IMG/VR virus record: IMGVR_UViG_3300042874_000443
Location: 1 to 64,000 of that record
Length of the DNA: 64,000 nucleotides
Source: a virus
Reading direction: 5' to 3' (one strand)
The translations under genes and the position numbers were made by a program. A model generated the notes under the pieces. That model worked only from the letters and a program-made list of their open reading frames with translations, was not told the origin of the DNA and did not search any database. Positions 35,460 to 59,121 of the stretch are shown here, one piece after another (the stretch's first letter is position 1; the number at the start of each line of letters is the position of its first letter).

Positions 35460-35771
35460 CTACGACCTCAGCGCGCCCATAGAGGGCGGCGGCTGTGCCG
35501 ACGGATCGCCGGCAAGTTCTGGCGGCATGCCGACAGTCGAGCCCATACCGGGCGGCGTTGGTGGCGACGTCGAAGGCATCTGCAGTGGAACGGTTCCGTC
35601 GAGCGCTGGAAGCGTTTCGCCTGGCACGTGTGACATCGGCGGCGTGTCCGTCGGCGGGATGTCCTTGCCGTGTTCGACGTCAGCCATGAACTGGTCAACC
35701 TGTGTTGGTGGGCCGAGTGCGAACTTCACGAGCGCGGCCTTGAGTCCGTTCATGTACGCCTGTTTCAACAT
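35460..35771 (-). CDS. Putative internal head protein (targeting-motif family)
   Basis: MLKQAYMNGLKAALVKFAL plus Pro-rich tail. Confidence 0.6.
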   Translation of the reverse strand: MLKQAYMNGLKAALVKFALGPPTQVDQFMADVEHGKDIPPTDTPPMSHVPGETLPALDGTVPLQMPSTSPPTPPGMGSTVGMPPELAGDPSAQPPPSMGALRS

Positions 35772-36289
35772 TAGAAGGTTCCTGACGTTGGTGCGTACAC
35801 GAGGTCGCGTCCTTCGCGGTCTCGTTTGTTCTGCTCGTGCATGCCGTACGCGAGAGCACCACCGGCGGCGAGCGCGCCGTAGCCAAGGCCCTTCCCGAGC
35901 ATCTTGCCGACGGGGCGCATGAAACGTCCTGGACCGCCGCCGCCACTACCACCGCCGCCGCTCATGCCGCCGCTGCCGCCACCGGCAGCCGCGGACCCGT
36001 GACCCTCGAACGCACGCGCAGGTGGAAGCTGCACAGGTTGCGTGTTGATGTTCGCGGCTTGCTGTTGCGCGACGCCTTTGTGCATGTCCGCCCAGGACGC
36101 GCCTTGCGGTGCAGCCGGTGCAGCGGGCGCAGCGGGGGCCTTCGGTATCGAATGAAGATCCGCATGTAGCCCCGCGATCGCAGGATGCATGGGCTTGCCC
36201 GCAGGCATGCCGATAGCCCCGCGCGCGATCTTCACGCCGAAACGTGTGAGGGCGTTGTCACGACCGCGTTGGAACGCCGCGATCAACAT
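35771..36289 (-). CDS. Putative internal head protein (targeting-motif family)
   Basis: MLIAAFQRGRDNALTRFGVKIA; Gly-zipper helix. Confidence 0.6.
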   Translation of the reverse strand: MLIAAFQRGRDNALTRFGVKIARGAIGMPAGKPMHPAIAGLHADLHSIPKAPAAPAAPAAPQGASWADMHKGVAQQQAANINTQPVQLPPARAFEGHGSAAAGGGSGGMSGGGGSGGGGPGRFMRPVGKMLGKGLGYGALAAGGALAYGMHEQNKRDREGRDLVYAPTSGTF

Positions 36290-36292
36290 CGG

Positions 36293-36658
36293 TCATCCGA
36301 CCGCGAGGAAGACGACGGACGCAGGCCCCGTCGTCGTGATGAGCGCCGAGATCGGAAACGGCGTGCTCGGATTGCACCACTGGAAGTGTCCGCCCGGTGC
36401 GAGCGGCCACGCGTCGAGGCCGCCGTTGAACTTGATCGTCGCCGAACCCGAGAGACACACGACGGTGACGCCCTTGGCACCTGCAGCTGCGAGCGTGTCC
36501 AGATGGACGATGTCGTCCACGACCGCCACCGTGTACGCGCGCTGGAAGTCTGCGCGGTTGACGTACGGGATGGTCGCCGCGAGGCTGATGGGGGAAGGGG
36601 AGCCGCCGTCGACGAAGGCAGCGGACACCGCACCCGCGACCGAGTAGTTCTGCGCCAT
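36293..36658 (-). CDS. Virion structural protein
   Basis: Leaderless TATAAT; beta-rich. Confidence 0.55.
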   Translation of the reverse strand: MAQNYSVAGAVSAAFVDGGSPSPISLAATIPYVNRADFQRAYTVAVVDDIVHLDTLAAAGAKGVTVVCLSGSATIKFNGGLDAWPLAPGGHFQWCNPSTPFPISALITTTGPASVVFLAVG

Positions 36659-36686
36659 GCACTAATTATAGTGGACGGGCGCGGGA

Positions 36687-37679
36687 TTACATCTCGAAGG
36701 CGATGGACGCGATCGGCCTGTTTTGGTCGCCGTACGAGCCGTCCTTCGTGCCCACACCGTACGGGCGGTAGGCGGCATTCGCGAGCTGGCCGATGTTGTC
36801 TGGGGTGATCTCGACCCACTGCATCGGGCGTGCGGAGTAGCCGCTTGAACCACGCGTTCCGTCCGCTGCGATCCGGTACATCTTGTGGTCGCGGAAGCAG
36901 AACAGCACGGTGTGGTGGTCCTTGTTCCAGCCGGTCGAGAGCTTGGTCGACTGGCTGCACAGCACGAACGTCGGCAGCGTGTCGCGACGGTCGTACAGCT
37001 CGCGCGCGTCCACGATACCCGCGAGGCCGAGACGCTTCGCACCTGAACCGTCCGGCGGAACACGAAAGCACACGTCGCCGAAGCCGCGGTACGGGCCCGC
37101 ACCAGGGTTCTGGTGAACGTCAGGCGACGCTTCGAGCAGCGTCATGAGCGAAGGAATGTTCCCCGCGTGCGTGAAGTCTTCGTTGCGACGCATGAGCCAC
37201 GACATGAAGAAGTTCGTCCACGATGTGCAGTGGAACGCGGGATACGTCTTGTTGAGGACGTTCGGCCACTCTCTCACAGTGCCGCCCATCTTCCCTGCGC
37301 CGTAGGTGATGACGAACTTGCCATCGACCCACAGTCCGCGTCCCGGACCGTAGCGAACCGGCTTGCCTGTGATCGCTGTGACGAGCGCCTGGAACGCGAG
37401 CCATGTTTGATCGTTGCACGGCACGATGTTCGAGGGTGTGCCAGCAACATCGCTGGCAGCCTTGCGCAGCACGATTGCCGCGTCCAGCGCCCCCAACGTG
37501 TGCGGTCCTGCGATGCCGTCGTCGTCGATGTCAGGACGATCGACCTGGAATGCAAGCACGGCGGCCGTGGTTCGCTTGCCGTAGTCACCGTCGATGTCGC
37601 CGGGGTCGTAGCCCGCAGCCTTCAGCTTGAGTTGGAGCAGCTCGACGGGCGGACCCTTGTCACCTGGCCGGAGGATCAT
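36687..37679 (-). CDS. Endolysin: peptidoglycan-binding domain plus Cys/His catalytic domain
   Basis: LRPGDKG..V..LQ..L...GYDPGDIDGDYG..T..AV..FQ...DGIAGPHT; FHCTSW...HHT. Confidence 0.75.
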   Translation of the reverse strand: MILRPGDKGPPVELLQLKLKAAGYDPGDIDGDYGKRTTAAVLAFQVDRPDIDDDGIAGPHTLGALDAAIVLRKAASDVAGTPSNIVPCNDQTWLAFQALVTAITGKPVRYGPGRGLWVDGKFVITYGAGKMGGTVREWPNVLNKTYPAFHCTSWTNFFMSWLMRRNEDFTHAGNIPSLMTLLEASPDVHQNPGAGPYRGFGDVCFRVPPDGSGAKRLGLAGIVDARELYDRRDTLPTFVLCSQSTKLSTGWNKDHHTVLFCFRDHKMYRIAADGTRGSSGYSARPMQWVEITPDNIGQLANAAYRPYGVGTKDGSYGDQNRPIASIAFEM

Positions 37680-38437
37680 GCGGTCTCCTTGATCGCTGCG
37701 AGCTGGGCGTACATGACACCGAGCAAGAGCTGGTCTGTCTCCTGGCTGTCGACGAACACCCAGTTCTCCTCGCGGTAGTAGTCCGTCCAGGCGATCTCTT
37801 CGATGACTTCCTGGTCCCACGGCACGGGAAACTCCTCACCGTTCTGGAAACCGAAGACGGGATACGCGTGCCCGCCGAGAGAGCGTGGCTCGTCGTTCGC
37901 TGTGCGCTTCTCCTTCGGCGTCAGTTCCCACCGCAGATCACGATCATCGTCGAGCTTCGCGGGGAGGCCTGCTGCGACGTAGAGCGACCCGAACGTGGAG
38001 AGCGCGCTCTGGCGTTCGTTGAGGTCACGGTCGCTCACGCGCGCGAACGCCACGACCTTCACCGTGCTGCCGTCGTCGAGCTTGAAGCCGATGTTGCGGC
38101 AGTAGTTCAGGGCGTTGATCGGCATCTGTCCGACGTCGGCCCCGTCCGTACTGTCGAGGTACGCCTTGATGACGTGCTGGCCGGTGATGTTGAGCACGCG
38201 GCCCTTTCGAGCCGCGTTGTTCATCATGATGCGCGCGATGCCGGCGAATGTGCAGCAGCCATACTGGTCGTTGCCGAGAATGTTCCAACGCGCGTTTCGT
38301 GGACGCGTGTCGACGTAGTACGGCGGCGTGCGAAGCGGGTCTGCGCGGAGGAGCGCCTTGTGGACGCTCTTGTACAACACGGTCTTCGGGTCGTGTTTCG
38401 ACGAGACCGAGCCGAGCTTGCCGCGCGTCAGCGTCAC
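37676..38437 (-). CDS. Papain-like cysteine peptidase
   Basis: GNDQYGCCTFAG and GGHA motifs. Confidence 0.65.
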   Translation of the reverse strand: MTLTRGKLGSVSSKHDPKTVLYKSVHKALLRADPLRTPPYYVDTRPRNARWNILGNDQYGCCTFAGIARIMMNNAARKGRVLNITGQHVIKAYLDSTDGADVGQMPINALNYCRNIGFKLDDGSTVKVVAFARVSDRDLNERQSALSTFGSLYVAAGLPAKLDDDRDLRWELTPKEKRTANDEPRSLGGHAYPVFGFQNGEEFPVPWDQEVIEEIAWTDYYREENWVFVDSQETDQLLLGVMYAQLAAIKETA

Positions 38438-38844
38438 AGCTTACACGCCGACTTGGTGCCGTCTTCGCGCACGCAGGTGGTGGAGTACACGGCACCCTCA
38501 CCGACTTCCTTGCGGAATGCGTCTGCCGTGTCACGAGCGGTCTTCGCCTGATCCGGCGTCGCGCGCGTACCACTGAGGAACCACTGCGTCAGCTCCATGA
38601 TGAAGCAGCCGCCGACGTCCTTGCCGGCCTGCGTAGCGCGAAGCTTCACGTCTGGCCACGAGATGGACCCACCACCGAGGATCGGTCCCTTGAACTCGTT
38701 GATGAGGTTGTCGATCTGCGGGCGGTTCGCGCCGAGGCAGTCGACGACCGCGTTGATCACTGGGCCGACAGGTCCCGGACCGTTGGGGCATGCGGTGGTG
38801 CTGGCGAGACCGACGACGAGAGCGAGGATGAGGAAGAAGCGCAT
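38434..38844 (-). CDS. Lipoprotein (possible spanin component)
   Basis: Signal peptide ending in a lipobox-like TTAC. Confidence 0.6.
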   Translation of the reverse strand: MRFFLILALVVGLASTTACPNGPGPVGPVINAVVDCLGANRPQIDNLINEFKGPILGGGSISWPDVKLRATQAGKDVGGCFIMELTQWFLSGTRATPDQAKTARDTADAFRKEVGEGAVYSTTCVREDGTKSACKL

Positions 38845-38855
38845 GGTGAGGCCTT

Positions 38856-39353
38856 TCAGGTCGACGCGGTGGTGGTGACGGGGGTGGTGACGGGCTCGGT
38901 CGCTGTCTCGGGTGTGGTTGTTGTCTTCGTCTCGAGCAGCGCGCCTGCCATCAGCGTCTTCGGAAGGTTGTGCACCGCTGACTCGATGAACGTGATGAGC
39001 AGCTTGGTGACGGCTGCATCGTCTGCGAGACCCAAGACTGTCATCAACTCCTTCAGGCCCTTCGTACCGAGATGGGATTTGAGGTTTGCGATTGCGAGGT
39101 CGCGGGCCTTCAGTAGTTCTTCAGACGTGGCTTTGTCTCCGAGCCCCGAGACAATCGTCTGCTGGATCTCCGTCACGACGGAGAATGCGAGCTGGGAGAG
39201 GCGCTCGAGAACGCCCGCGACGCTCTCGTTCTTCACCTTCGCCTTGATCCACGCGGGCAACATCATGGATGCCCACGCGACGAAGAGGCCCACGAGCGGC
39301 AGTACGACGCCCTTCACGATCAACATGCCGATGGTCTCGATCTGGTCTTGCAT
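38856..39353 (-). CDS. Holin-like protein
   Basis: N-terminal TM, VTEIQQT..., FIESAVHNL resembling the LL-H holin family. Confidence 0.55.
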   Translation of the reverse strand: MQDQIETIGMLIVKGVVLPLVGLFVAWASMMLPAWIKAKVKNESVAGVLERLSQLAFSVVTEIQQTIVSGLGDKATSEELLKARDLAIANLKSHLGTKGLKELMTVLGLADDAAVTKLLITFIESAVHNLPKTLMAGALLETKTTTTPETATEPVTTPVTTTAST

Positions 39354-39613
39354 CAGAAGTCTCCCTTGCTCGGCACGCTGACCGAGCCTTTTTCCGCCGG
39401 CTTGTCGCCGTGCGAGTGAACGTAGCCCGCCTTGTTTTTCAACGAGGTGCGCGACATCGGAACGATCGTCGTACACGAATGTCCGCCGAGCATTTCGTCT
39501 TTGCTCGAGACCGGCTGGTCGCACGCAGCGCACACGGCGATTTCATCCTCCGTCATGTGCATGTGTTCGAAGCGATTCCCGCAGTCGCAGACGTACTCCC
39601 GGATCTTGGGCAC
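39353..39613 (-). CDS. FmdB-family Zn-ribbon protein
   Basis: MP.IREYVCDCGNRFE...CAAC. Confidence 0.7.
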   Translation of the reverse strand: MPKIREYVCDCGNRFEHMHMTEDEIAVCAACDQPVSSKDEMLGGHSCTTIVPMSRTSLKNKAGYVHSHGDKPAEKGSVSVPSKGDF

Positions 39614-39648
39614 GCGGAATGATAGGCGCCGCTTACCTGATAAACAAG

Positions 39649-41531: not shown

Positions 41532-41533
41532 GG

Positions 41534-43551: not shown

Positions 43552-43560
43552 GGTGCTCCT

Positions 43561-44608: not shown

Positions 44609-45538
44609 TCAGGCTTTCATATAGCGCAGGCCTTTGGTGGCTCCAATTGTGCCACCAACGGACGCGAGAAGATCGGGGAGTGACATGCCGACGCCCGGCA
44701 CGGTGATGTGACGGCCGAGAAGCTTTTCGAGGCCCATGCCTCCGAGCGCACCGAGGCCGCCGCCGAGAAGGCCGCCGCCGGCCATACCGCCGAACGTGCG
44801 CGCGGCAGCGCCGGGACCGTGCTTGACGCCCTGTTCTACGACGCTGTAGCCGGGGATCTCTCCCTTCAGGATGTCGCTCACAGGCTCACGTTCGACGTGC
44901 TCGCTCTGTTTCAGCGTCGGCTGCAGCATCTGTGCGCCTTGCAGTGCCCAGGGTGGGATGTCTTGGGACGTTGCGTCAAGCGCGTACGGCGCTCCTGGTG
45001 GCACAGAGGGCGCCGCCGTTTCTTCCGCTTTTTCGCCGAGAAGCTTGCCGGCCGTGCCCATCGTGAGAGTGCCGAGGAGGGCGCCTAGCTCGGGGTTGTT
45101 GAGGTAGCGGCGCCCCAGGTTGAATCCGGCGTAGCCGCCGATCGCGGGACCCGCTACCGCGGGAAAAACGGACGAGAGGCTGCCGCCCTTGAAGATGCTC
45201 GTCAAACGCGACAGGCGGTCCATCACACCCGGCGAAGAAGGTGCCGGTGCGGAGGGCGCGGCTTGGCGCGCAGCCATTGCGCGTTCGATGTCGCTCATAC
45301 GTTGCGTCAGCTCGCCGCCTTGCTGTTCGATGAGATTGGCGCGTTGTCCGAGACGCCCGTGGAGGGCACCTGCACCAGCGCCCATTGCGACGTCGCGTAG
45401 TGGGTGATCGTCACCGCTGACGAGACTCGTGAGTCCACCGAGCGCTCCACCCGCAAGCGCTCCGCCCAGTGGAGAGTTCGTCAGCAACTTGCTGACGTCC
45501 ACAGGCAGCGCAGCGATCTTGAAGCGTTCGACGGTCAT
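44609..45538 (-). CDS. Glycine-zipper internal/ejection-like protein
   Basis: Multiple GxxxGxxxG helices; MTVERFKIA. Confidence 0.55.
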   Translation of the reverse strand: MTVERFKIAALPVDVSKLLTNSPLGGALAGGALGGLTSLVSGDDHPLRDVAMGAGAGALHGRLGQRANLIEQQGGELTQRMSDIERAMAARQAAPSAPAPSSPGVMDRLSRLTSIFKGGSLSSVFPAVAGPAIGGYAGFNLGRRYLNNPELGALLGTLTMGTAGKLLGEKAEETAAPSVPPGAPYALDATSQDIPPWALQGAQMLQPTLKQSEHVEREPVSDILKGEIPGYSVVEQGVKHGPGAAARTFGGMAGGGLLGGGLGALGGMGLEKLLGRHITVPGVGMSLPDLLASVGGTIGATKGLRYMKA

Positions 45539-46548
45539 CAGTTCATCATCTGCTGCTGCTGCGGCTGTTGCTGTTGCGGCATCATCTTCTGACCCAGCGC
45601 ACCGCCGGCCATCGAGCCGACCATGTCAGTGGCGGCGCCGCCGATGCCGCCGGTCATCTTCGGAAGCGCCTTGCCCGCCACCCCTTGCAGCATCTTGCCG
45701 CCAGCGCCGCGTGCGAGCGCGCCCGCGCCTGCGCGAAGGGCGGTTCCACCGAGTAGTGCGCCTACGAGTGGAAGGATCGCCTCTTTGATCTGGAACGCAG
45801 CCGCAGCCGCCTTGATGCCGAGGTTGTAGTTCTCCTCGAGTCCTGCTGCCTTTGCAGCGAACGGCGACGTCGCGTGCATGCGATCGAGCGCCGCTTGTGG
45901 AAGCGGCGGCGGACCCTTCGGCCCCTTTGCGGCCGCCGGGATCGGTGGCGGCTTTGTCGGACGACCGCCGCCCATCACTGATGCAGCAGCAGCCGCGGGT
46001 GACATGGGGCCGCCGGCACCGCCGAAGATGGCGGCCTTCTCGCTGAGGCCGAATGCTGCGAGCGCTGCGTGCTTGCCGCGCAAACGATCGATCGTGCTGC
46101 GGTCGTCTTTGCCGCCGAGATGACCACCGATCGCAGCGCCGCCCACGCCACCGATCTGTTTGCCGAGATTCGCGCCCGCCTCTGGATTCATGTGAAGGGC
46201 CTGCGCGAGTAGGCTGCCGAGACCTCCCCCTGCGAAGCCGCCAACCGAGTGCCCGATGCCGGCGTCGATGGCTGCGTCGAGACCGCGCCCGGGATCGGCG
46301 CCAAGACCTGCACCGATCGCAGCGCCCGCCTGTCCGCTCAGCGGACCGAGCGCACCTGCTTGACCCATGCCGGACCCCAGACCGCCGATGAGCGCACCCA
46401 TCCCGCCCTGGTTCGCGAGCTTCTCCTCGTGCCCTCGGGGCTCACGTTCCACGATGATGTTGACGCCAGGACCGCCGTGCTCGCGCGTGTTCCTCTCGGC
46501 GCCCTTGACGAGATCCGCGATGAACTTGTCGAAGAAGCTATCGGACAC
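45538..46548 (-). CDS. Glycine-zipper polyprotein-like internal protein
   Basis: EKLA, EKAA, KEA sites; two internal AAxxxF targeting-like motifs. Confidence 0.55.
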   Translation of the reverse strand: MSDSFFDKFIADLVKGAERNTREHGGPGVNIIVEREPRGHEEKLANQGGMGALIGGLGSGMGQAGALGPLSGQAGAAIGAGLGADPGRGLDAAIDAGIGHSVGGFAGGGLGSLLAQALHMNPEAGANLGKQIGGVGGAAIGGHLGGKDDRSTIDRLRGKHAALAAFGLSEKAAIFGGAGGPMSPAAAAASVMGGGRPTKPPPIPAAAKGPKGPPPLPQAALDRMHATSPFAAKAAGLEENYNLGIKAAAAAFQIKEAILPLVGALLGGTALRAGAGALARGAGGKMLQGVAGKALPKMTGGIGGAATDMVGSMAGGALGQKMMPQQQQPQQQQMMN

Positions 46549-46558: not shown

Positions 46559-48916
46559 TTACGCGACGAGGTGCAGTTCGATGACGTTGAGCGGCTTCGG
46601 CAGGCCGATCGCGCAGTAGATGAGCACGCGGTCGCCTGACGTCGGCGAGACGTCGAGGCTCGTGATCTCGAACGACGTCAGCGGCGCACCGATCTTGGCG
46701 ACCGTGCGCAGAAGCAGCAACTGCGACCCCGTGATAAGAGCACCGTGGAGCTGCGTCAGCGTGTCGACGGTGACGTTGTACTGGCCGAGGAAGTCTTCGA
46801 GGATGTCGACGAAGAACAGCGACACGAAGTCGAAGTTCTTGACGACCGAGAACTCCCCCGACTCGAGCGTCGACGGGTCGGTGGTGAGCTGGTGGATCGT
46901 GTACGGCAGCGACGTTGTCGTCTGCTGCGCGAACACGTACCAGCCACCGTTCGAGATGTCGGTGAGCTGGCTGTCGGTGAAGTACGTGTTCGAGTTGAAG
47001 ATCTGGCTGACACCGGCGATGCCGATGTTGGTGAACCCCTGCTGCGACGGAAGGCCCGCCGTCATGCCGCCGACCGCACACGCCAGGTAGAACCCAGGCT
47101 GGTTGTCGCCGTCGGTCACGCCCGCGACGTCGCAACGATCCGGCCACACGAGGATCGTGCGCTTGGAGTTGAACGACTGTGCGACCGCGACCAGGTCCGT
47201 CACCTGCTGGCTCTTCGAGAGCGTGCGAACGATCTGGAAGTTGATCGTAGTGAGGCCGACGAGAGCGCCGCCAATGCGCTTCACGCCGTGGGGCAGCTCG
47301 TTCATGACCGTCGAGCTGTCCTGGCCGTTGTTCACGATCTGCAGGCGCTGGTCACTGATGACGTTGTTCACGACAAGCGTCGTGAATACCGTCGCATCCG
47401 TGATCGTGGCGTTGGGGTCGACGGGGATCTGGATCAGGTCACCCGCAGCGACGCCGCTCGCGACGAACGTCCCGCTCGGGTCCTTCAGGATGAGGTAGAG
47501 GTCGTCGCCCGCGGCTGTCGTCGTACCGACGAGAGGTGCCGATGCGATGCGCACGGTGACACCATCCGCCTCGAGAATCGCGCAGGTGATGTCAACGGCG
47601 CCTGCGCTCGCGAACGGCGTCGCCGTGTCGACTTCGAGAATCGCAGCCGTGGCCACCGACGCGATCGGATAGTCGCCGAGCGCGACCACACCCGCTGCAC
47701 TGGTCACGGTGACACGCAAGATGTCACTCGGGATCACGCCGTTGGTGATGAGGCTCGCGATGCCCGTGAGCGTGATGCGGACGATCGCGGTTGGCGCAGT
47801 GCCGGCAACCTGGATTGATTCACCCGTTGCCGATGGTTCGATGATCGTCTTGGTGATGGGCAGCGTGCCGTTGCCGATGACGACACGGAAGCGCTGCGGA
47901 CGGCCGTGCACGTCGTCAGGCAGTGCAAGCCCGACGCAGTCCGAGTTCCACATCGCGAAGATCGGGATGTCGGTCGTCAGCGGGATGATGGCGTAGATGT
48001 CCGGGCGCGCGGAGATGAGGTCACGCACTTGCGTGTGCCCCACCAGGTCATCTGACAGCACGCCGATGAACTGCACGACTGAGGTCGTGTTTTGGAGCGC
48101 CACGAACGCACCCGCGGCGAGCGGGTTGCGCGCGTCGATGCGCCCGATCTTCGAGAGGATCTCGTCCGTGGATTCGATCGTGTCGAGATCCACGAGGTCC
48201 TGACGGAGCGAGATGTACTGCTCGTAGACCACCGCGTACGACACCACGTGGGTGCCCTGGTTGGTGACCGGCAACGTCACACCGCCCGAGATTCGGGTGA
48301 TGTTTCCGTTGGTGGTGACGAACGACGAATCGATCTGGACGTCGTTGATCTGACGCTCGATGCGGAACACCTGCGCGATGCCCGGAACGAACAGGCCGCC
48401 GGTGACGTCCGAGGTCACCGTGAGCTGTGTGTCCGACACGACGGAGGCGACCGTGCGCGAGATGAAGTTCACGCCGTCCGAGATCGTGATGCGGTCGCCT
48501 GGCAGCACGCGCGTGTTGCCGGTGTTCCACAGCGCGGTTGCCGAATCGATCACGTTCGGCGTGGCGACGGTGGTGACGCCGTCTGCGCCGCTTGCGATGA
48601 TCACGCGCGCGTTGTCGAAGAAGATCGCGACACTGTCACCGTCGAGCAGGGCTCCCACCTCGTTGTTGGGGGGCTCCGCCACGACGATGTAGTTCGGCCC
48701 CACGGGAGTTGCCGTTGCCGGGTTCCCTTCGAGCACGCCGTAGGGCGTCGCCACCAGGATGTCGGCCTTGTCGGCGTAGTCCGTGGTTCCAGGTTCGAAG
48801 TAGTCCTGGATGTGGAAGGCCGGGCCCACCACGAGGCAGTTGAGATCCGGGGACGTCGGCGTAACCGTCGGCGTGGCCAGGTCCTGGTAAACAAGTACGA
48901 CCGGTCGAATGGCCAT
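46559..48916 (-). CDS. Tail sheath protein
   Basis: 785 aa; MAIRP.V.VYQ start; YLACAVGG, FTDSQL..I..GG, HQLTTD, EFSVVKNFDF, PLNVIELHL C-terminus. Confidence 0.8.
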   Translation of the reverse strand: MAIRPVVLVYQDLATPTVTPTSPDLNCLVVGPAFHIQDYFEPGTTDYADKADILVATPYGVLEGNPATATPVGPNYIVVAEPPNNEVGALLDGDSVAIFFDNARVIIASGADGVTTVATPNVIDSATALWNTGNTRVLPGDRITISDGVNFISRTVASVVSDTQLTVTSDVTGGLFVPGIAQVFRIERQINDVQIDSSFVTTNGNITRISGGVTLPVTNQGTHVVSYAVVYEQYISLRQDLVDLDTIESTDEILSKIGRIDARNPLAAGAFVALQNTTSVVQFIGVLSDDLVGHTQVRDLISARPDIYAIIPLTTDIPIFAMWNSDCVGLALPDDVHGRPQRFRVVIGNGTLPITKTIIEPSATGESIQVAGTAPTAIVRITLTGIASLITNGVIPSDILRVTVTSAAGVVALGDYPIASVATAAILEVDTATPFASAGAVDITCAILEADGVTVRIASAPLVGTTTAAGDDLYLILKDPSGTFVASGVAAGDLIQIPVDPNATITDATVFTTLVVNNVISDQRLQIVNNGQDSSTVMNELPHGVKRIGGALVGLTTINFQIVRTLSKSQQVTDLVAVAQSFNSKRTILVWPDRCDVAGVTDGDNQPGFYLACAVGGMTAGLPSQQGFTNIGIAGVSQIFNSNTYFTDSQLTDISNGGWYVFAQQTTTSLPYTIHQLTTDPSTLESGEFSVVKNFDFVSLFFVDILEDFLGQYNVTVDTLTQLHGALITGSQLLLLRTVAKIGAPLTSFEITSLDVSPTSGDRVLIYCAIGLPKPLNVIELHLVA

Positions 48917-49698: not shown

Positions 49699-50541
49699 TC
49701 AGTACAGTTGCGGCGTTGTAGCAGGGTCCACGAGAAGCTTGTATTCGACAGAGTTACGGCCTAGCAACGAAGTAGATAGTTTCTGATGTACGGTGACGCT
49801 CTTCAGCTCCGTGTGATGAACACGTTGAACCTGATAGCGGTCATTACGTACCAGGTCGACCACGATGTCCTTGTACTCGACAAGTGGGTAGTCCAGGATG
49901 TTGAAGTCCGCGAGTCGAACATCACTGTCGCCATGCGCCATGATGTTCGTTTCAACGGTTGCGGCTTCACGCCTTCCACGGATGAGTGTCGGCGTCCAAT
50001 ACCCGCCCACGAACGATGTGCCGAAGCAGACCAGACAATGCTCGAGAGTCGACTCCTTGTTCACAGGGTCGTAGCACTCGGGACAACGGTCGCCCCAACG
50101 GCGGCGCTTGAGCAAGATGAGCGGGATGCCGTTGAGGTTCTTGTAGCCGACCGCCTGGTCGTGAAGGATCTTGCGTTTGAACAGACGCGTCCGTCTGTCG
50201 AGGCCGGGCTCCACAGGTTCCGGATGACTGTGGAACTCGTTTGCGGAACCCGACGGGGGTGTGACCGTGACCTGGTAGTAGATCACGCGCGCGAGTGAGA
50301 ACAGGTTGACGCCTTCACGTCCCGCGTTGCGGGGGTCCGCGGGAGGCAAGTTGAATTGATCGTCGACGAAGTTGTATGCGTCACGTAGTCCTGTTGCGAT
50401 CGATTCCCAAGGACCGTCTGGACCTTGCGCACGTGCGATGTCGACGAAGAACGACCCGCTCTCCTCTGATTCAACGTCCCACTGCACGAACACGGCGGTC
50501 GGGAACAACGCGGTGGTCCGCGTGATGTGGACGTCAGCCAA
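49699..50541 (-). CDS. Neck / head-closure protein
   Basis: RCPECYD...CLVCFGTSFVGGY; position between head and tail genes. Confidence 0.5.
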   Translation of the reverse strand: MADVHITRTTALFPTAVFVQWDVESEESGSFFVDIARAQGPDGPWESIATGLRDAYNFVDDQFNLPPADPRNAGREGVNLFSLARVIYYQVTVTPPSGSANEFHSHPEPVEPGLDRRTRLFKRKILHDQAVGYKNLNGIPLILLKRRRWGDRCPECYDPVNKESTLEHCLVCFGTSFVGGYWTPTLIRGRREAATVETNIMAHGDSDVRLADFNILDYPLVEYKDIVVDLVRNDRYQVQRVHHTELKSVTVHQKLSTSLLGRNSVEYKLLVDPATTPQLY

Positions 50542-51325
50542 GAGCCGCCGGCCCCGGCTCAGGATCGCCGAAACCGCCCCCGATGTTGGTTGTGTCGACG
50601 GGGTTATCGAACTCGCGGAACATGCGATCGATGCGTTGCTCGCCTTCAGCGCCCCAGCCGACAGGGGGCGACAGGCGCGTGCGGCGTTCTTCGTACGGGT
50701 TCACTGTCGGACCGCGCTGCTCGTGCATCGAGTGGCCTTCGGAACCGGGGAGCATGAAGTCGGCGAGCTTGCGCGCGACCTTGTGTAGTCCGCCCGTCAT
50801 CCGCCCCGGCTCATCAGCGCTGTTGCGAATGCCTTGGTGGCGGAACAGATCCGCGAACGCGGACCCCGCTTGTTCGTCTGCAGGGCGTCCATCACGCGTG
50901 CGTGCGAGCGCGGAGTCCGCCGTCGTTGCCGAGTGGTAGTGCGGGCTCGTCGACGGGTTGTTCTGTTGCGACGGATCGCCGCCCAGCATGCCCATGTTGA
51001 AGTCCGCGGCCTTCACGGGAATCGTGCGCGGCTTGTCGCACGGACCGTAGTGCTTCGTCTTGCGACACGTCGTGCACATGTCTTCGGCCGACAGCTTTCG
51101 GATGGGTTCCGAACGCGACTGTCCCTGCTCGTGCGCACTGAAGATCTGCGCGACCTGCTGTGGATCGGTCGGCGCCGACAGGTTCTGCTGCGCGGTTTGC
51201 GACAGCGTGGGCGATGTCGGCTGCGTGATGGTCGCGACGTTCGGATTCGTGGGCGCGGGAAACCCCAGCTTGTAGCGCGCGAGCGCCGCGAGCTGTCCGT
51301 CTGCGTATGACAACTCGAGGGTCAT
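50534..51325 (-). CDS. Putative internal head protein (targeting-motif family)
   Basis: LELSYADGQLAALARYKL; KAADF, KLADF, IDRMF. Confidence 0.6.
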   Translation of the reverse strand: MTLELSYADGQLAALARYKLGFPAPTNPNVATITQPTSPTLSQTAQQNLSAPTDPQQVAQIFSAHEQGQSRSEPIRKLSAEDMCTTCRKTKHYGPCDKPRTIPVKAADFNMGMLGGDPSQQNNPSTSPHYHSATTADSALARTRDGRPADEQAGSAFADLFRHQGIRNSADEPGRMTGGLHKVARKLADFMLPGSEGHSMHEQRGPTVNPYEERRTRLSPPVGWGAEGEQRIDRMFREFDNPVDTTNIGGGFGDPEPGPAALG

Positions 51326-51726
51326 GGCGCGACAACATCCCCTGGGAGCGGCATGCTGCTCGTCGCGTAGTCGTCGTCGTTTCGTTGAAACGCTCGGTCG
51401 ATCACGCTGCGTTGCCGACGTCCTGTGTCTTCAGGTTCCCCAGCTTGCGCGCCTGCTCCGTCGGTGGAGGTCGAAGCACCCATCCCAACGTTGGACGCCT
51501 TCTTGAGCTTGGGAACGAAGTCGTAGTCGCTCTCGACCTTGTTCGCACCGAGCGGCGACGGCACACTGGGCGGCGGGATTGGAGGCAAGTCGCTCGCCTT
51601 CGGCAACTGAATCCCAACGGACTTGAAGCCCGGCTGCTTGAAGCCGCCCTCCGCTGTTTTCACCACGCCGAAGGCCGCGAGCGCTGCGCGCCCGCCCTCG
51701 ACAGCTCTCTGGCGCAACAGCGACAT
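51322..51726 (-). CDS. Putative internal head protein (targeting-motif family)
   Basis: RAVEGGRAALAAFGVVKTA; IDRAF. Confidence 0.6.
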   Translation of the reverse strand: MSLLRQRAVEGGRAALAAFGVVKTAEGGFKQPGFKSVGIQLPKASDLPPIPPPSVPSPLGANKVESDYDFVPKLKKASNVGMGASTSTDGAGAQAGEPEDTGRRQRSVIDRAFQRNDDDYATSSMPLPGDVVAP

Positions 51727-51736
51727 GGGGTGGTTG

Positions 51737-51913
51737 TTACTTCTGCGGCGTGCGGAACAGGCTGTTGAGCGGGTTCGCGGCGACCTTCGGTGCTTCGATG
51801 AGGCCGAGCGCTTCGGCTTCCTTGCGGACTTCTTCGGCGGTCTTGTAGCCAGCGCGCGCGAGGGCCTGCTGGACGCCGTACTCGTGCGCGGTCTTCAGGT
51901 GGGTGTTCGACAT
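51737..51913 (-). CDS. Small internal head protein (58 aa; not in ORF track)
   Basis: MSNTHLKTAHEYGVQQALARAGYKTAEEVRKEA; leaderless TATAAT. Confidence 0.65.
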   Translation of the reverse strand: MSNTHLKTAHEYGVQQALARAGYKTAEEVRKEAEALGLIEAPKVAANPLNSLFRTPQK

Positions 51914-51934
51914 GGTTGAATTATAGGGCGAATT

Positions 51935-52222
51935 TCACCCAATGACTTCTTGTCCGAACGTTCCATCTGCACGACCGGGCGCGATCTGGTCGTACGTCGT
52001 GAAGTGGTCCCACAACCAGTCCGGCATGTTGGCGCGCGCTGCGCCCGCTGATGCCGCCGAGGCGCCATCCCCCGGTGTTTCACGACGGGCGTATGGAATA
52101 CGGTCGGTTCCGTGGCTGACCTCGTCGCCCTTGGGTGCAACGCCGGCGTCCGCGCCCATCGCGTTGGCGAACTTCGCGAAGGCCGCACGCGTACCGCGCG
52201 CGTATGCGGCGCGTAACGTCAT
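51935..52222 (-). CDS. Putative internal head protein (targeting-motif family)
   Basis: MTLRAAYARGTRAAFAKFAN. Confidence 0.6.
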   Translation of the reverse strand: MTLRAAYARGTRAAFAKFANAMGADAGVAPKGDEVSHGTDRIPYARRETPGDGASAASAGAARANMPDWLWDHFTTYDQIAPGRADGTFGQEVIG

Positions 52223-53204: not shown

Positions 53205-53232
53205 GGGATGCCTCTATTGTAGGGGTGGGCGC

Positions 53233-53637: not shown

Positions 53638-53664
53638 GGGTGTCTCCTGTTGCTGAAACGACGA

Positions 53665-53707
53665 AGGCCTTCTTCCTGTGTCCCCAAGCAAGGGAGGAAG
53701 AAGGCCT
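53665..53707 (-). terminator. Stem-loop after the major capsid gene
   Basis: 13-bp stem AGGCCTTCTTCCT/AGGAAGAAGGCCT with a weak T-tail. Confidence 0.55.
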
Positions 53708-53734
53708 CAGCCTACCCTGGGGCAGGGGCGAAGA

Positions 53735-54670
53735 TCAGACGAACGGCAGGTCGATGCGCTGCGTCGCCAGCGTGTTGCCGATACCGATGCCCGGAGCTGC
53801 GTAGCTCCAGAACTCGATGATGTCGGCTTCCTGCTTGATGTACAGGGTTGCGTCCTGCAGCAGGAAGAACACGCCGAGGTAGTTCTGCGGCGCGAACACG
53901 TAGACCGAGCGGCGCGTGCCGCCGGCGACGTCGTCGACGATCTCGCGCTTGATGGTCGAGACCACCGGGATGCCCCACAGCTTCTCCTCGGCCTCGATGC
54001 CGAGGTCGTAGTGGCGCGACGCGACGTCGTTGCCGACGCTGGTCGCCGGCAGGTCGAGCGCCTCGTAGTACGTCGACTTGCTCATCAGCAGCTTGCCGAT
54101 GGGCTGGCGACGGTTGACGAGGCCCTGGAAGCCGAGCTTGAACGCGCTCGAGTTGAACGCACCCGCCGCCGTGATCTGCGCCGGCGCCAACGCGAGGATC
54201 GCGTTGATGGTGTCGGTGAACTTCGTGTCCTCCTGGTCGGCCATGTCCTTGACCGAGTTGTCGGACAGGATCTTGCGGATGTCGTTCTGGTACGTCATCA
54301 GCTCGAACTTGTTCTTGGTGAAGCGCTGCGACTCCGTCTTGCCGAAGTAGACGGAGAAGCGGCGACCACGGAACCACGTACGCTGCGCGGTGCCGTTGAA
54401 CGGCACGAACGTGGCGACGGAGTCGGGCTCCTTCTCGACGATCTTCTTGGGCTGGTCGGTGTTCTCGTCGCGATCGATCTCGTCGTCCGCCAGCATGACT
54501 GGCTCGATGATCTCGCGCGCGAAGGACTCCTGACGGAGCTTCTGGCGGATGAAGGCGGTGCCTTCGGCTTCGGCTTCTTTCGTCCGTCCATCCTCGACCT
54601 TGCGGACGAAGTTGGAGTTGATGAACTGAGCCGAGACCTGCTGGGTCTGTGTCTTGTACGCTGCCGACAT
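53735..54670 (-). CDS. Major capsid protein
   Basis: 311 aa, strongly biased codons, FIRQKLRQESFAREII, DMADQEDTKF, VYVFAPQNYLG, GIGIGN; downstream stem-loop. Confidence 0.75.
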   Translation of the reverse strand: MSAAYKTQTQQVSAQFINSNFVRKVEDGRTKEAEAEGTAFIRQKLRQESFAREIIEPVMLADDEIDRDENTDQPKKIVEKEPDSVATFVPFNGTAQRTWFRGRRFSVYFGKTESQRFTKNKFELMTYQNDIRKILSDNSVKDMADQEDTKFTDTINAILALAPAQITAAGAFNSSAFKLGFQGLVNRRQPIGKLLMSKSTYYEALDLPATSVGNDVASRHYDLGIEAEEKLWGIPVVSTIKREIVDDVAGGTRRSVYVFAPQNYLGVFFLLQDATLYIKQEADIIEFWSYAAPGIGIGNTLATQRIDLPFV

Positions 54671-54698
54671 GGTGTGTGGTTCTCCTTAGTCCGGGGGC

Positions 54699-55163: not shown

Positions 55164-55187
55164 GTGAGTCTGCCTCCGGGAAGTGCG

Positions 55188-55541
55188 CTACGAGATGATG
55201 AACTTGAGAAACCGCTCGTCTGCAGCGTCCGCTGCTTCCTTCACGGTCTGAGGTTGGTGGTCTGCTTCCGTCGTCGCACCTGCGCCGAGCGGAGTCACGA
55301 TACCGGCTTGCTTGGACAGCAGGTCTTCGACCACATCGAGGGATGCGTCGTCGGCCTTGGCCAGCTTCTGACGGACGATGTCCGGCAGTTCTTCGCCGTG
55401 CGTCGCGACGTGCACCGCCGCGATCTTGTCGAGACGCACCTGGCGTGCGGCTGCGACGGACGAAGTCTTCTCGCTTTCGACCTGGTCGACATAGTCGGCC
55501 ATGGCGTCGAATACAGCGGCGAGCTTGGCGTGTTCAACCAC
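55188..55541 (-). CDS. Scaffold-like head protein
   Basis: Helical; EKTS, KIA, KLA, KQA, KEA; ADERFLKFIIS C-terminus. Confidence 0.55.
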   Translation of the reverse strand: MVEHAKLAAVFDAMADYVDQVESEKTSSVAAARQVRLDKIAAVHVATHGEELPDIVRQKLAKADDASLDVVEDLLSKQAGIVTPLGAGATTEADHQPQTVKEAADAADERFLKFIIS

Positions 55542-55689
55542 GAATGCCTCCGAGCTTGGAGCGGAGTGTTCCGAAGCCGGCCGCCGCGACGAGTACGGCT
55601 GCCGCCTTCTCCTTGCGGATCTCGGCGTGCTTCGCGCCCTGCGTACGCAGGTCGCTGGCGATCGAGCGGAGCATCTCGGAGTCCTTCAT
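55534..55689 (-). CDS. Small head protein (51 aa; not in ORF track)
   Basis: MKDSEMLRSIASDLR...EKAAAVLVAAAG. Confidence 0.55.
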   Translation of the reverse strand: MKDSEMLRSIASDLRTQGAKHAEIRKEKAAAVLVAAAGFGTLRSKLGGIRG

Positions 55690-55901
55690 GGCGTCCCCAT
55701 GAGATCATCGTACGACACATCGTTCGACGCCGTGCGAATCTCGTTGGCGAGTGCGCGCAGGCCGCGCGCCATCTCGGTCTTGGGTTGTGCGGCCGCGACC
55801 TTGATCGCCGTCGCTTCGGCGGTCTTGCGATGTGTTGCTTCGTTCGCTGCGGCGAGAACCTCGTCCACGACCAGCGACAGGTGTTGCTGCGCGCGGCTCA
55901 C
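55686..55901 (-). CDS. Small head protein
   Basis: KTA, KVA; coupled. Confidence 0.6.
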   Translation of the reverse strand: MSRAQQHLSLVVDEVLAAANEATHRKTAEATAIKVAAAQPKTEMARGLRALANEIRTASNDVSYDDLMGTP

Positions 55902-56173
55902 GGCATGCCTCGATGCGTGTACGAGTGGAGCGCATCAATGATCTGCGGTCCGGCCATGCCGGTCGCCATGCCCGCGCCGAAGGAGGTGTTGCGCGCGCGC
56001 TCGCGCTCTTTTTCGTCGTGCGCATGCGTGAGCAGCGCACCGAGACCGGCGCCGCCAAGCGCACCGGCTCCACCCGCGAGCAGCGCTTTGACGAGCGCTG
56101 GGTTCTCGGCGGTCTTCGTCTCGGCCGCCTGCTTGAGGCGACCGACGACGTCGATGTGGACGAGGTTGGACAT
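55898..56173 (-). CDS. Glycine-zipper head protein
   Basis: KQA, KTA; AGGAGALGGAGLG. Confidence 0.6.
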   Translation of the reverse strand: MSNLVHIDVVGRLKQAAETKTAENPALVKALLAGGAGALGGAGLGALLTHAHDEKERERARNTSFGAGMATGMAGPQIIDALHSYTHRGMP

Positions 56174-56178
56174 GTGGT

Positions 56179-56763
56179 TCAGCGCGCGCTCTCGATGATC
56201 GCGAGCGTGTCCTTGAAGCCGCTGACGAAGGACTCGCTCGCGGCCTTGTGGATCTGCTCGACGGTGTCGTTCCAGCCCTTGGCGTATGCCGCCTCGGCGA
56301 GCTTCTCGAGCTGCTGCGTGGTGGCAGAGAAGCCCAGCTCCGCGGCCTCCTTGACCAGTTCGGGGTTCTCGGCAGCGAACTTCTCGAAGTCCGATGTCCC
56401 CCCTGCAACTGCGGCGGTCTTGGTGGGCTGCGTGGCGGCGACCTTTGCGGCTGCCTCCTGGTACTGCGCACCGCGCGCCATGAAGCCGTCCATCACAGCG
56501 GCGCCGTAGAGCTGCGCCTCCTTGACGAGTGCTTCGTGCTCGGCCTTGCTCAGGTCGGCGGCGATCTTGGTGAGGTCCTCGACCGGCGAGGCTTGGCTCG
56601 CGGTCTTGGCTTGTGGCGCCGTGGCTTCCTTGAGCGCCTGCTTGAGGCGTTCGCCGGCGTCGCTCGATGGAGACGACGATCCCGACGGCGTGGCTGCGGG
56701 CGCCGCAGCGCTCGCGGTCTTTTCGCCGCCTTTGATCATCCCGAGTGCGTCTGAGAGCTTCAT
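56179..56763 (-). CDS. Scaffolding-like protein
   Basis: Ala/Glu helical with about 10 K-x-A sites; own promoter (TATCAT). Confidence 0.6.
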   Translation of the reverse strand: MKLSDALGMIKGGEKTASAAAPAATPSGSSSPSSDAGERLKQALKEATAPQAKTASQASPVEDLTKIAADLSKAEHEALVKEAQLYGAAVMDGFMARGAQYQEAAAKVAATQPTKTAAVAGGTSDFEKFAAENPELVKEAAELGFSATTQQLEKLAEAAYAKGWNDTVEQIHKAASESFVSGFKDTLAIIESAR

Positions 56764-56821
56764 GGGTTGCCGTCTCCAGTTACGGTGAAAATGATAGGGG
56801 GCTGTTCACTGAAAAACAAAC

Positions 56822-58564
56822 TCAAGTCAACACGATGGCTCCGAGCGCTTCGGCGACCCCATCCAGGCTCGCTGCTGACGCCACCTTGATACTCGAAAAG
56901 TCACACGAGTGCGTCGTCGGTAACGCGCATTCGATGAGATGCACGATCGACGCTTGGGACGCCGATTTGGCCACCATCTCCGTGATGTCGGGGATGTCGT
57001 AGCCCTCGTCCGTACGCATCGTTCCACCCGGGCGCTTGCCGAGTGTGGCCATACCGAGCGCTCCTGCACCGATTGCAAGAGGTGTCTTGAATCGACGCAT
57101 CCAAGGGAATGCGGTGAGCGCTTTGTATCCGCCCAATAGTAGACCAGTACCACCGAGCACCTTGCCGATATGCGCACGTGTCACGGCGTCTTGCGCATCG
57201 ATCGCTGCACCGCGTGTCGTTTCGTATGGCCCCATGTGTAGCACGTCTGTCGTGGGCGCTGCATCAGGACGGAGCCCAGCACCTTCGGGAACGAGACGGC
57301 GGTAGAGCATCTCGCCGACGTACGCACGCTTCTCGTTGACGCGCCCGAAGTAGCCGTGCAGCTCTTTGGCGATCTTCGAAGACTCGAGCGCGCCCCCGTC
57401 GATCACTTCGTCGAGAAGCTCTGGACGTTCCGCGAAAAGTCCTAGCGACCAACGTGCGGCGGCCGCCACCTTCGCGACCATCACAGTGGTTGGCGCGAGC
57501 GCGACACCCGCGAGCTTGCTCATCGCGAGCGGAACAAACTCCGCGTCTTTGAGCACGACGCCGTACGCGGCTGCCGCACTGAGCACCTCACCCAGAGGCC
57601 ATGCGCGCAATGCGTTGACGTCGATGCTCGCGGCCTTCGCGAGGCTTGGGCCGGCGTGGTCACGGAACTTCACGATGAACGACTTCTCGTCCGGTGTGAG
57701 CGTGCTCGACGCCAGAGGCTCCGCACGGATCACCTTGTCGATGTCCGAGAGCTTCTGCGTGGCTCCGCTCTTGAGCGTGAGGCGCTCGGTGACTTCACCG
57801 AGATCGGCCGACAGGCGAACCGTTGCAACATCCGCGACCTTCTTGAGTGTGTAGCCGGTGCGGTCCGCGGGACGGAACACACGGCTGATGTCGAAGAAGT
57901 CGGGCGACGGGTTGTGGACGTAGTCCTTGAACCCGTGCTCGTCGACAACGTTCATCGCGAACTTCACGTGGTCGCAGTAGTCCGCACGGGTCGGCGCTTC
58001 GTTGCCACAGCGTGCGCACACGTCGCGCTTGATGCGGCAGCCCATGCTGACAGGTACGAACTCGCCATCGCTCGCACGCTTGACCCACTCGGGGTCCTTG
58101 TCGTTGTCGACCGAGACGAGAAGCTCCACGCGGTGCATGCGCGGGTTCCAGAACGCCTTCTTCACCACACCCGATGCTTTCGACGGGTCGCGGTTCGCGT
58201 GGTGCTTGAACGCGTGGGCGGGGTTCTTCTCGAACGAGGCGTAGTGCTCGGTCAGCTCTTCGCCGGGCGGTACGAACCACCGGCGATTGATCGACGCGAT
58301 CTTGCCTCGTGCGGGAACCGGGAATTCAGGGAAGCCGTCGCCGTTGCGGTTCGGGCCGTACGTCTCTTCGGCGCCGAGTGCGTTGAGCAGCATCGCCGTC
58401 TTGCCGGGCTCGGGCGCGACGTGCTTGATGTAGTCGAGAGCCTCGGAGGCGTACTTCGAGACGCGGCTCGTGTCGACGCTGCGGCCGCTGTTCCACGGCA
58501 GGATGATCTGGACCGTGGGTTCTCCGGTCGCGAAGTAGTCGTCCAGCTCGATGATCTTCTTCAC
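56822..58564 (-). CDS. Putative prohead maturation protease / head assembly protein
   Basis: GPNRNGDGF, FKHH, VSMGC..DVCARCGN..YCDH, FFDISRV.RPAD; position before scaffold and MCP. Confidence 0.6.
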   Translation of the reverse strand: MKKIIELDDYFATGEPTVQIILPWNSGRSVDTSRVSKYASEALDYIKHVAPEPGKTAMLLNALGAEETYGPNRNGDGFPEFPVPARGKIASINRRWFVPPGEELTEHYASFEKNPAHAFKHHANRDPSKASGVVKKAFWNPRMHRVELLVSVDNDKDPEWVKRASDGEFVPVSMGCRIKRDVCARCGNEAPTRADYCDHVKFAMNVVDEHGFKDYVHNPSPDFFDISRVFRPADRTGYTLKKVADVATVRLSADLGEVTERLTLKSGATQKLSDIDKVIRAEPLASSTLTPDEKSFIVKFRDHAGPSLAKAASIDVNALRAWPLGEVLSAAAAYGVVLKDAEFVPLAMSKLAGVALAPTTVMVAKVAAAARWSLGLFAERPELLDEVIDGGALESSKIAKELHGYFGRVNEKRAYVGEMLYRRLVPEGAGLRPDAAPTTDVLHMGPYETTRGAAIDAQDAVTRAHIGKVLGGTGLLLGGYKALTAFPWMRRFKTPLAIGAGALGMATLGKRPGGTMRTDEGYDIPDITEMVAKSASQASIVHLIECALPTTHSCDFSSIKVASAASLDGVAEALGAIVLT

Positions 58565-59121
58565 GGTAGAAGGCCTCGCAACAGGCGCGAAGCTTCACCG
58601 CGGTGGATGATGAGACGAACGAGCGCCGCGTGTTTGGCGTCCGGGTCCGTCAGCTCGTGACACGCAGCCTCGAGTACGTCGTCAACCAGGATCGCAGCTG
58701 CGATCTTGTCGGGCGTCATCTCTTCTGGGGCCGGAGGCAGCGTCGTCGGGGCGCTCGAAGCGATCGGATGCGGTGCACGTTTGAACGCGTTTCCGAGCGC
58801 TTCCATACCGCCGACACCCGCAGCTGTCAGAAGTGCCTGGTTGCGCGCGTCGCGCAAGACGTCCGCGCTGTGTCGCTGCGCGTCTCCCAAGAACATGTGG
58901 CCTGCGGCGAGAGCGGGAACGCCGAGACCGACGCCCCAGCCGAGACCGCGTTGCAGTGCGCTGATGGCCGCGGGGTCGATCGCGGCTTGCTTGAACAAGC
59001 CGAACGCAGCGAAGTCGGCCATCGCGAGCTTCTCGCGCAGCGCCTGCGACGCAGGACGTGCCGACGCCACCTTCTCGGCGAGAAGGACGGACGTGGCGAG
59101 AGTCTTGGCGAGGGTCGACAT
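58561..59121 (-). CDS. Head protein with hydrophobic helices
   Basis: EKVA, EKLA, FKQA, DKIA, KHA. Confidence 0.55.
   Translation of the reverse strand: MSTLAKTLATSVLLAEKVASARPASQALREKLAMADFAAFGLFKQAAIDPAAISALQRGLGWGVGLGVPALAAGHMFLGDAQRHSADVLRDARNQALLTAAGVGGMEALGNAFKRAPHPIASSAPTTLPPAPEEMTPDKIAAAILVDDVLEAACHELTDPDAKHAALVRLIIHRGEASRLLRGLLP

Follow-up and report, generated by a model that had tools for sequence, protein, structure and literature searches.

Why do several small, otherwise dissimilar proteins of one phage begin with the same peptide, and why does this peptide so often run into a Lys-x-Ala triplet (K-x-A)? The question is raised by the first 64 kb of the 157,408-bp contig of an uncultured phage (IMG/VR record IMGVR_UViG_3300042874_000443; ~60–65% G+C), the stretch analysed here and called the window below, in which six small minus-strand genes open with a common leader, L-x-x-[AS]-[YFH]-x-x-G-x-x-A-A-[LF]-x-x-[FY]. 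An earlier note, made from the letters of the window alone, had suggested that the leader targets proteins to the capsid and that a prohead protease cuts at K-x-A. We find that leader and triplet each carry a strong statistical signal and are linked to one another, and we put at roughly 0.5 the probability that together they form a propeptide system like that of the phage T4 capsid-targeting sequence (CTS), built from different parts and with the leader as the capsid-targeting tag.

Every peptide quoted in the earlier note is present at its gene on the minus strand. The leader takes up ~16–20 residues at the N-terminus of at least eight otherwise unrelated small proteins of the phage, with the consensus L-x-x-[AS]-[YH]-x-x-G-x-x-A-A-L-x-[RAK]-[FY]-[KG]-[LVI]-x, in which the G and the second A are invariant. 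Within the window, and all on the minus strand, it forms residues 1–18 (35718..35771, ending K-F-A) of a 103-aa Pro-rich protein (35460..35771), residues 1–22 (36224..36289, ending K-I-A) of a 172-aa protein (35771..36289) with a C-terminal glycine-zipper-like segment, residues 1–21 (51263..51325, ending K-L-G) of a 263-aa protein (50534..51325), residues 1–25 (51652..51726, ending K-T-A) of a 134-aa protein (51322..51726) and residues 1–19 (52166..52222, ending K-F-A) of a 95-aa protein (51935..52222). The sixth leader (51836..51913) belongs to a protein of only 58 aa (51737..51913), with a conserved K-T-A at both flanks and four of its five lysines in K-x-A. Two internal copies (45778..46095) lie in a Gly-rich 336-aa protein (45538..46548, minus strand); the first ends E-K-A-A, and the second is preceded by K-A-A and ends K-E-A. 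Orthologues of this protein have one leader copy only.

Chance does not account for these likenesses. The pattern [AS][YFH]..G..[AQN]A[LFA]..[FYA] matches five times in a six-frame translation of the window, each time in the first 12 residues of a minus-strand open reading frame (ORF). Among the 32 proteins that we took as the structural module, G..[AQN]A[LF]..[FY] occurs six times against 0.11 expected from shuffles, and five times with its G in the first 15 residues against 0.007 expected. The cargo parts (the remainders of the leader proteins) have no detectable pairwise similarity, so the claim of a shared N-terminal leader on dissimilar proteins stands. A genome-wide search for the motif, which had been proposed as a check, found further copies past the window at ~67.2, 67.5, 67.9, 70.1 and 70.5 kb, on the same strand and in coding frames only. 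Just past the window, too, the 444-aa product of 65899..67233 (minus strand) has a weaker leader-like N-terminus, M-F-K-H-A-Y-V-R-G-I-Q-T-A-L; with 15 K-x-A against 5.1 expected this gene is the second most enriched in the genome, and its product may be a second core or scaffold-like substrate.

The virion is encoded by one minus-strand operon that runs from ~34 kb to past the window end. Its major capsid protein (53735..54670, minus strand, 311 aa) shares 41.6% identity with Salmonella phage Arash gp226 and 38.6% with a protein found in Vibrio phages D69/D181/D148. Gene order agrees with Arash gp218–gp238, comprising the protease (56822..58564), a scaffold-like protein (56179..56763), the capsid protein, neck genes, the sheath (46559..48916, which also has a weak PHROG match) and the tube; the minus-strand succession of protease, scaffold, small protein, decoration-like protein and capsid protein is identical in Arash gp222–gp226. 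As closer relatives we used 80 loci from an IMG/VR scan with the capsid protein (69–99% identity), several of them from complete genomes of 175–198 kb. In these loci a leader profile scored 10 bits or more in 51 places on the coding strand and nowhere on the opposite strand; most of these matches lie 0–8 residues from the start, on orthologues of the same genes. Orthologues from ~20 related metagenomic phages retain the leader at the N-terminus, as do proteins in public gene calls, and two complete relatives have 10 and 11 copies, on one strand each. When a profile of 35 leaders was searched against 1.84 billion public representatives (E<=1e-3), 25 proteins matched, 21 of them with a match beginning at residue 1–5; they span at least six unrelated cargo families and 65–426 residues.

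What is conserved is the peptide. Identical leader residues differ in codon in 54% of paralogue comparisons, which places the constraint on the peptide; given this synonymous variation, we rejected the idea that an element acting in DNA or RNA gives rise to the motif. The leader is likewise conserved between orthologues at 40–80% identity while codons vary. In an AlphaFold2 (AF2) model of the 95-aa protein 51935..52222, residues 3–18 form a helix (pLDDT 70–83), the sole confident one, followed by disorder. The motif had been called amphipathic; this description does not hold in that the Kyte-Doolittle hydrophobic moment of the six leaders is not above shuffles, although on a helical wheel drawn from the consensus the conserved L, Y, G, A and F do share one face, within an arc of ~80 degrees. 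A signal-peptidase leader and a leader of the Prp/L27 type were considered and rejected, the consensus having neither a hydrophobic core nor a motif like L-N-L-Q-F-F-A.

Most of the cargo is short, disordered and rich in Pro, Ala or Gly, or is a glycine-zipper segment, and these are not enzymes; Pfam searches with ten leader or head proteins returned sub-threshold glycine-zipper matches only and no family. The cargo of 50534..51325 has a conserved Cys knuckle, C-T-[ST]-C-R-K-x-K-H-Y-G-x-C. Its relatives in public data vary widely in length (206–426 aa), and tblastn of this cargo against 50,697 phage records gave no match.

The second part of the question concerns the triplet itself. K-x-A occurs 82 times in the structural module against 41.1 ± 5.3 expected from per-protein shuffles, and 128 times in a comparison set of 100 non-structural genes against 128.3 expected. 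None of the control patterns (A-x-K, R-x-A, E-x-A, K-A) is in excess. The enrichment of head over non-structural proteins that the earlier note had proposed as a check is thus present, and its own caveat, that Ala/Lys composition might produce the triplets, is answered by the shuffles and the flat controls. The most K-x-A-enriched genes genome-wide all sit in the head module, where the excess is concentrated in a few proteins: the protease holds 15 of its 36 lysines in K-x-A (4.6 expected), the scaffold-like protein (194 aa, minus strand) 12 of 17 at positions conserved in its orthologues, the internally repeated protein 45538..46548 seven of 17, and the sheath none. Two small head-module proteins follow the same pattern with conserved sites, 58561..59121 (minus strand; six of seven lysines, and a half-leader A-D-F-A-A-F-G-L-F-K-Q-A) and 59124..59603 (minus strand; four of six). 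The data support K-x-A as a composition-independent signal concentrated in head-internal proteins.

The same distribution is seen among orthologues. In 54 diverged scaffold orthologues (median identity ~43%), 544 of 701 lysines (78%) are in K-x-A against 150 expected, or 598 if K-x-G and K-x-S are included, and the sites fall at aligned positions; the protease orthologues hold 431 K-x-A where 165 are expected. The capsid protein has one K-E-A, at residues 31–33 (54572..54580), in 65 of 65 distinct sequences and in the context G-R-[T/V/I]-K-E-A, and outside it the same 65 sequences hold 18 K-x-A against 96.9 ± 8.6 expected, a depletion of about fivefold. Taken together, the accumulation of the triplet in proteins that have to be broken down or trimmed, its depletion in the shell and its single invariant N-terminal site are the signature that one expects of a maturation-protease recognition motif. 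Taking the cut to fall after Ala, an assumption borrowed from the P3-x-P1 sites of SPN3US gp245, the context of the triplet is L at P5, E/V at P4, T/I/V/E at P2 and S/A at P1'. The bias extends to cultured phages: in Arash, gp220 has 10 K-x-A (3.1 expected), the scaffold gp223 eight (3.1) and gp225 seven (1.8), and the head proteins of D69 show the same bias, which is absent from the tail proteins of both Arash and D69. The rule is therefore lineage-wide. The published Arash virion proteome (116 proteins) has a supplement of annotations and sequences at the protein level only and, with no peptide-level data, cannot reveal cuts. On this statistical footing we consider it highly probable that K-x-A is the recognition motif of the prohead protease. 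Literature searches turned up no description of the leader or of a prohead protease with a Lys-x-Ala rule, and the cutting rule appears to be previously undescribed.

The enzyme had been assigned to 56822..58564 (minus strand, 580 aa), for which PHROGs gave a weak match to a head maturation protease family and a PDB sequence search with the protease profile gave chance matches only. The first 275 residues were modelled by AF2 with 23 orthologues (pLDDT 68). The model superimposes on T4 gp21 (5jbl) over 138 of 164 residues (Z 10.2, rmsd 3.3; Foldseek probability 0.92), well above the next entries, which are the herpesvirus proteases (VZV, PRV, HCMV, HSV; Z ~6). The model thus supports a T4 gp21-like prohead protease fold for the N-terminal domain (57833..58564), in keeping with the original assignment. 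S173 (in S-M-G), H121/H122 and H107 are invariant in the 23 orthologues, making S173 and a His candidate catalytic residues, and an invariant K-V-A at 242–244 ends the folded domain and is a likely self-cleavage point.

Two further features of the domain deserve mention. A C-x-x-C ... C-D-H cluster (C183, C186, C197 and H199; 57968..58018, minus strand) is invariant within the gp21-like domain, at residues 183–199, and suggests a zinc-binding insertion. In several relatives the protease ORF is lengthened to ~980–1010 aa by an insert of ~360 aa with LAGLIDADG-like motifs, placed exactly at the invariant Cys176 (after residue 176; loci L004:4924-7863 and L008) or Cys197 (after residue 197; L013), near the presumed catalytic Ser173. 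These inserts look like inteins at two different sites.

How closely, then, are leader and triplet tied? Among 38 distinct leaders, K-x-A starts at −1 to +6 of the leader aromatic in 19 and K-x-[AGS] does so in 30; windows of 10 residues drawn at random from the same ORFs give 3.4 and 4.1. The statement that K-x-A often follows the motif is thereby borne out, without being universal. In the family of 51935..52222, K-F-A and F-K-L-A alternate through a two-residue indel, so that the triplet is kept while the register shifts; in the family of 51322..51726 a K-T-A right after the leader is found in close relatives only. Two public proteins have two leaders each, with K-x-A after each, and look like two-module fusions. 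These two and the one window protein with internal copies are what can be said for a polyprotein cargo, which the earlier note had overstated. Unrelated short N-terminal peptides on other head proteins likewise end in K-x-A, as in the glycine-zipper protein 44609..45538 (minus strand), whose propeptide-like N-terminus reads M-T-V-E-R-F-K-I-A. The positional statistics suggest that the leader is probably removed at its terminal K-x-small site, and that the leader proteins probably enter the head and undergo trimming inside it.

From these data we infer cleavage, the position of the cut, targeting and the fate of the products along the following lines. The gp21/assemblin-fold protease would recognise Lys-x-Ala in the fuller context L-[E/V]-K-[T/I/V/E]-A with S or A next, and, to judge from the P3-x-P1 sites of SPN3US and T4, would probably cut after the Ala. 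In the prohead it would shred the scaffold (cutting at every K-x-A yields 13 pieces of 4–26 residues), cut itself at K-V-A 242–244, take ~33 residues off the capsid protein at the invariant K-E-A and trim short propeptides off many small head proteins. In one Arash-like sub-clade, at least eight accessory late genes at several sites in the operon would have acquired the same N-terminal helix of 16–20 residues, with the conserved face L, Y, G, A, A, L, F and normally ending in K-x-A, K-x-G or K-x-S. The helix would act as the handle by which these proteins enter the prohead core as it assembles, and maturation would remove it; the products so released, small peptides that are disordered or of glycine-zipper type, would stay in the head or be ejected along with the DNA.

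Within this scheme targeting is the leader's role with about even odds, by analogy with T4, and several observations weigh against it. Arash, D69 and the relatives at 69–74% capsid identity show no detectable leader, so targeting in the lineage cannot be generally leader-dependent. About one fifth of the leaders have no K-x-[AGS] nearby. All orthologues of 51322..51726 keep a K-x-A ~70 residues downstream of the leader start, before a conserved F/S-N-V-G-M-G-A. For the 58-aa protein, the predicted cuts would leave four tiny pieces, as one might expect of an accessory to the scaffold sooner than of cargo. Finally, the scaffold, which had been listed as a further occurrence of the motif (as A-A-Y-A-K-G), weakly resembles the leader at residues 154–175; the likeness, seen in a segment E-x-A-Y-x-x-G-[WY]-N-D-T-V-x-x-I-H-K-x-A, is not significant in an hhalign comparison of the leader and scaffold profiles (best match at residues 158–167, E 0.12).

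The main rival is that the leader is a propeptide removed by the protease and has no targeting job, acting instead as a docking (exosite) element or as a safety catch on membrane-active glycine-zipper peptides, with entry into the head depending on other features. The tight tie between leader end and K-x-small fits such a propeptide, as do the glycine-zipper or transmembrane-like segments of several cargoes, the unrelated short propeptides of other head proteins that also end in K-x-A, and the leader-free relatives that still follow the K-x-A rule. A conserved helix face of 16 residues on many unrelated proteins, however, exceeds what a cleavage site needs; the scaffold and capsid protein carry their K-x-A sites with no leader at all, and several cargoes, among them 51935..52222 and 35460..35771, lack a membrane-like segment. 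We regard this explanation as unlikely, and the two that follow as less likely than either it or a targeting leader. One is that the leader is not cut off and stays on as a helix through which these proteins bind one and the same partner, in the virion or in the infected cell (portal, tail, DNA or a host factor, for example), and that it is shared through duplication and module shuffling. Its internal position in 45538..46548 and the two public proteins, the fifth of leaders with no nearby K-x-small and the fact that the genes have neck and tail genes, and not head genes alone, for neighbours all speak for retention. Yet the internal copies are themselves flanked by K-x-A, the triplet is 5–7 times commoner at the leader end than elsewhere in the same proteins and is maintained through an indel, and the leader proteins are K-x-A-enriched, as protease substrates are, which makes a retained helix distinctly improbable.

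The other is that there is no common function, the N-terminal likeness being a remnant of fast-evolving paralogues and the K-x-A excess a product of Ala/Lys-rich helical composition. The proteins are indeed Ala-rich, and most of the cargo is of low complexity and quick to diverge. Composition is nevertheless excluded by the composition-preserving shuffles and the four control patterns, and paralogy and composition alike fit poorly with the depletion of K-x-A in the capsid body, with leaders conserved among orthologues as their codons vary, and with an invariant G and A and an N-terminal position kept in at least six cargo families; we give this explanation very little credence. A T4-like propeptide system with a targeting leader is the reading that we prefer, at about even odds.

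When did the leader arise? Relative to Arash, the four leader genes at 50.5–52.2 kb form an insertion between the gp233 and gp234 orthologues, and the two Gly-rich genes at 44.6–46.5 kb (44609..45538 and 45538..46548) form one between sheath and tube. The leader profile gave nothing above 4 bits on the head regions of Arash and D69 and no match on three complete relatives at 69–74% capsid identity. Relatives at this distance have neck regions with none of the inserted genes and keep the K-x-A of the scaffold, which makes the leader a sub-clade innovation laid over an older protease rule. The rule itself may reach further. Bacillus phage G has a distant homologue of the protease domain in gp19, and Bxz1-type mycobacteriophages have one as part of a fusion protein of 1369 aa; the protease subfamily is also encoded by Dickeya phages. 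In proteins of phage G (gp19, gp21) and of Mycobacterium phage Catera (gp94, gp96) K-x-A ranks among the most over-represented i/i+2 residue pairs. It is the top pair in phage G gp19 (8 against 2.4 expected) and gp21 (7 against 2.8) and third in Catera gp94 (18 against 8.2), and the Catera capsid protein has K-Q-A-K-L-A at residues 42–47. The paper on phage G gives no cleavage sites. As a lead only, this over-representation suggests that the rule may be older and wider than the Arash-like lineage.

The most far-reaching proposal is that the Arash-like lineage, perhaps with the whole protease subfamily that it shares with phage G and Bxz1-type phages, has an undescribed Lys-x-Ala rule, and that one soil sub-clade independently invented a targeting helix mimicking a scaffold segment (A-Y-x-x-G ... 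[I/F]-(H)-K-x-A). We offer it tentatively and think the odds are against it as a whole. Were the mimicry real, a gene acquiring the helix would have its product co-assemble with the scaffold and travel with the DNA, and the helix would be a second, convergent and portable protein-packaging tag with a predictable release site. Use of the leader for engineered protein delivery, as the earlier note envisaged, is speculation.

The neighbourhood of the leader genes holds some other features. A PG_binding_1 domain protein, a probable cell-wall hydrolase, is encoded at 36687..37820 / 37676..38437 (minus strand) and adjoins the leader genes at 35.4–36.3 kb; one of the two start codons is probably wrong, because the ORFs overlap by ~145 nt. 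At the end of the operon, 33969..35456 (minus strand) encodes 495 aa with a P-loop (G-A-G-K-T) in the C-terminal half and no Pfam family; its N-terminus is M-G-I-G-W-L-K-F-A, and an internal F-K-I-A precedes a hydrophobic stretch. Glycine-zipper-like G-x-x-x-G runs are present in many head-module proteins (44609..46548, 55898..56173 and 58561..60985, minus strand), with sub-threshold matches to Pfam Gly-zipper_YMGG, and these proteins may be membrane-active ejected peptides. Phages of this lineage also appear to encode their own RNA polymerase.

The main interest lies in a proposed new cutting rule, backed by unusually strong sequence statistics, in a lineage with cultured relatives (Arash, the Vibrio D69 type and possibly the phage G and Bxz1 types). 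If the rule holds, it offers a simple prediction of the mature virion proteome for a large and almost unannotated phage lineage and separates protease substrates from shell proteins by sequence alone. Should the leader prove to be a genuine targeting tag, it would mark out a fast-turnover set of small head-delivered proteins, candidates for functions in early infection or counter-defence.

Comparison with known systems sets these proposals in context. The cargo-loading peptide of encapsulins is short, usually C-terminal and uncleaved, and binds the inner face of an HK97-fold shell; it was rejected as a model here, the motif being N-terminal and tied to a protease site in a tailed-phage head with portal, scaffold and protease. 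Herpesvirus assemblin, which cuts at (V/L/I)-x-Ala/Ser, shares the fold class of the modelled protease, and the predicted sites resemble its own in Ala at P1 and Ser/Ala at P1'. Its P3 residue is not Lys, however, and it has only two sites, in its own scaffold precursor, with no cargo leader. A closer parallel is the gp245/gp175 protease of SPN3US and phiKZ-like phages, which acts at S/A/G-x-E sites in many head and ejection proteins (PMC10052503, PMC5694885); the sites of SPN3US gp245 are A-x-E, with cleavage after the Glu, V at P4 and S at P1' (PMC10052503). As there, we predict a P3-x-P1 site with V preferred at P4 and S at P1', and many head proteins that would lose N-terminal propeptides with multiple sites. 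Unlike there, P3 and P1 would be Lys and Ala and not Ala and Glu, and the cleavages of SPN3US are measured whereas ours are predicted; its propeptides have no common leader motif described.

The best analogy remains that of T4, which the earlier note had rightly drawn. Mullaney and Black (1996) are said to have described the CTS of the T4 internal proteins IPI, IPII and IPIII and of Alt, removed by gp21. In both systems a short N-terminal peptide is common to otherwise unrelated and poorly conserved accessory proteins and ends in a motif of a gp21-fold protease, assigned here from the K-x-A statistics, and in both the scaffold or core protein and the protease carry many copies of that motif. 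The CTS propeptides of T4 give accessory proteins an affinity for the prohead core and are then removed by gp21 (PMC9026906). The parts differ throughout: the CTS has 10 residues (MKTYQEFIAE), whereas the leader has ~16–20, no sequence similarity to it and a helix with an L/Y/G/A/A/L/F face; the predicted site is K-x-A and not L/I-x-E, in an Arash-like and not a T4-like lineage; and the putative cargo consists mostly of tiny disordered or glycine-zipper peptides, with targeting and cleavage predicted from sequence. Since the leader bears no likeness to MKTYQEFIAE, and E-x-A and the other controls are not enriched, it is an analogue of the T4 CTS and not a homologue. If it is indeed a targeting tag, loading by means of an address label plus a cut site will have evolved more than once, with different chemistry.

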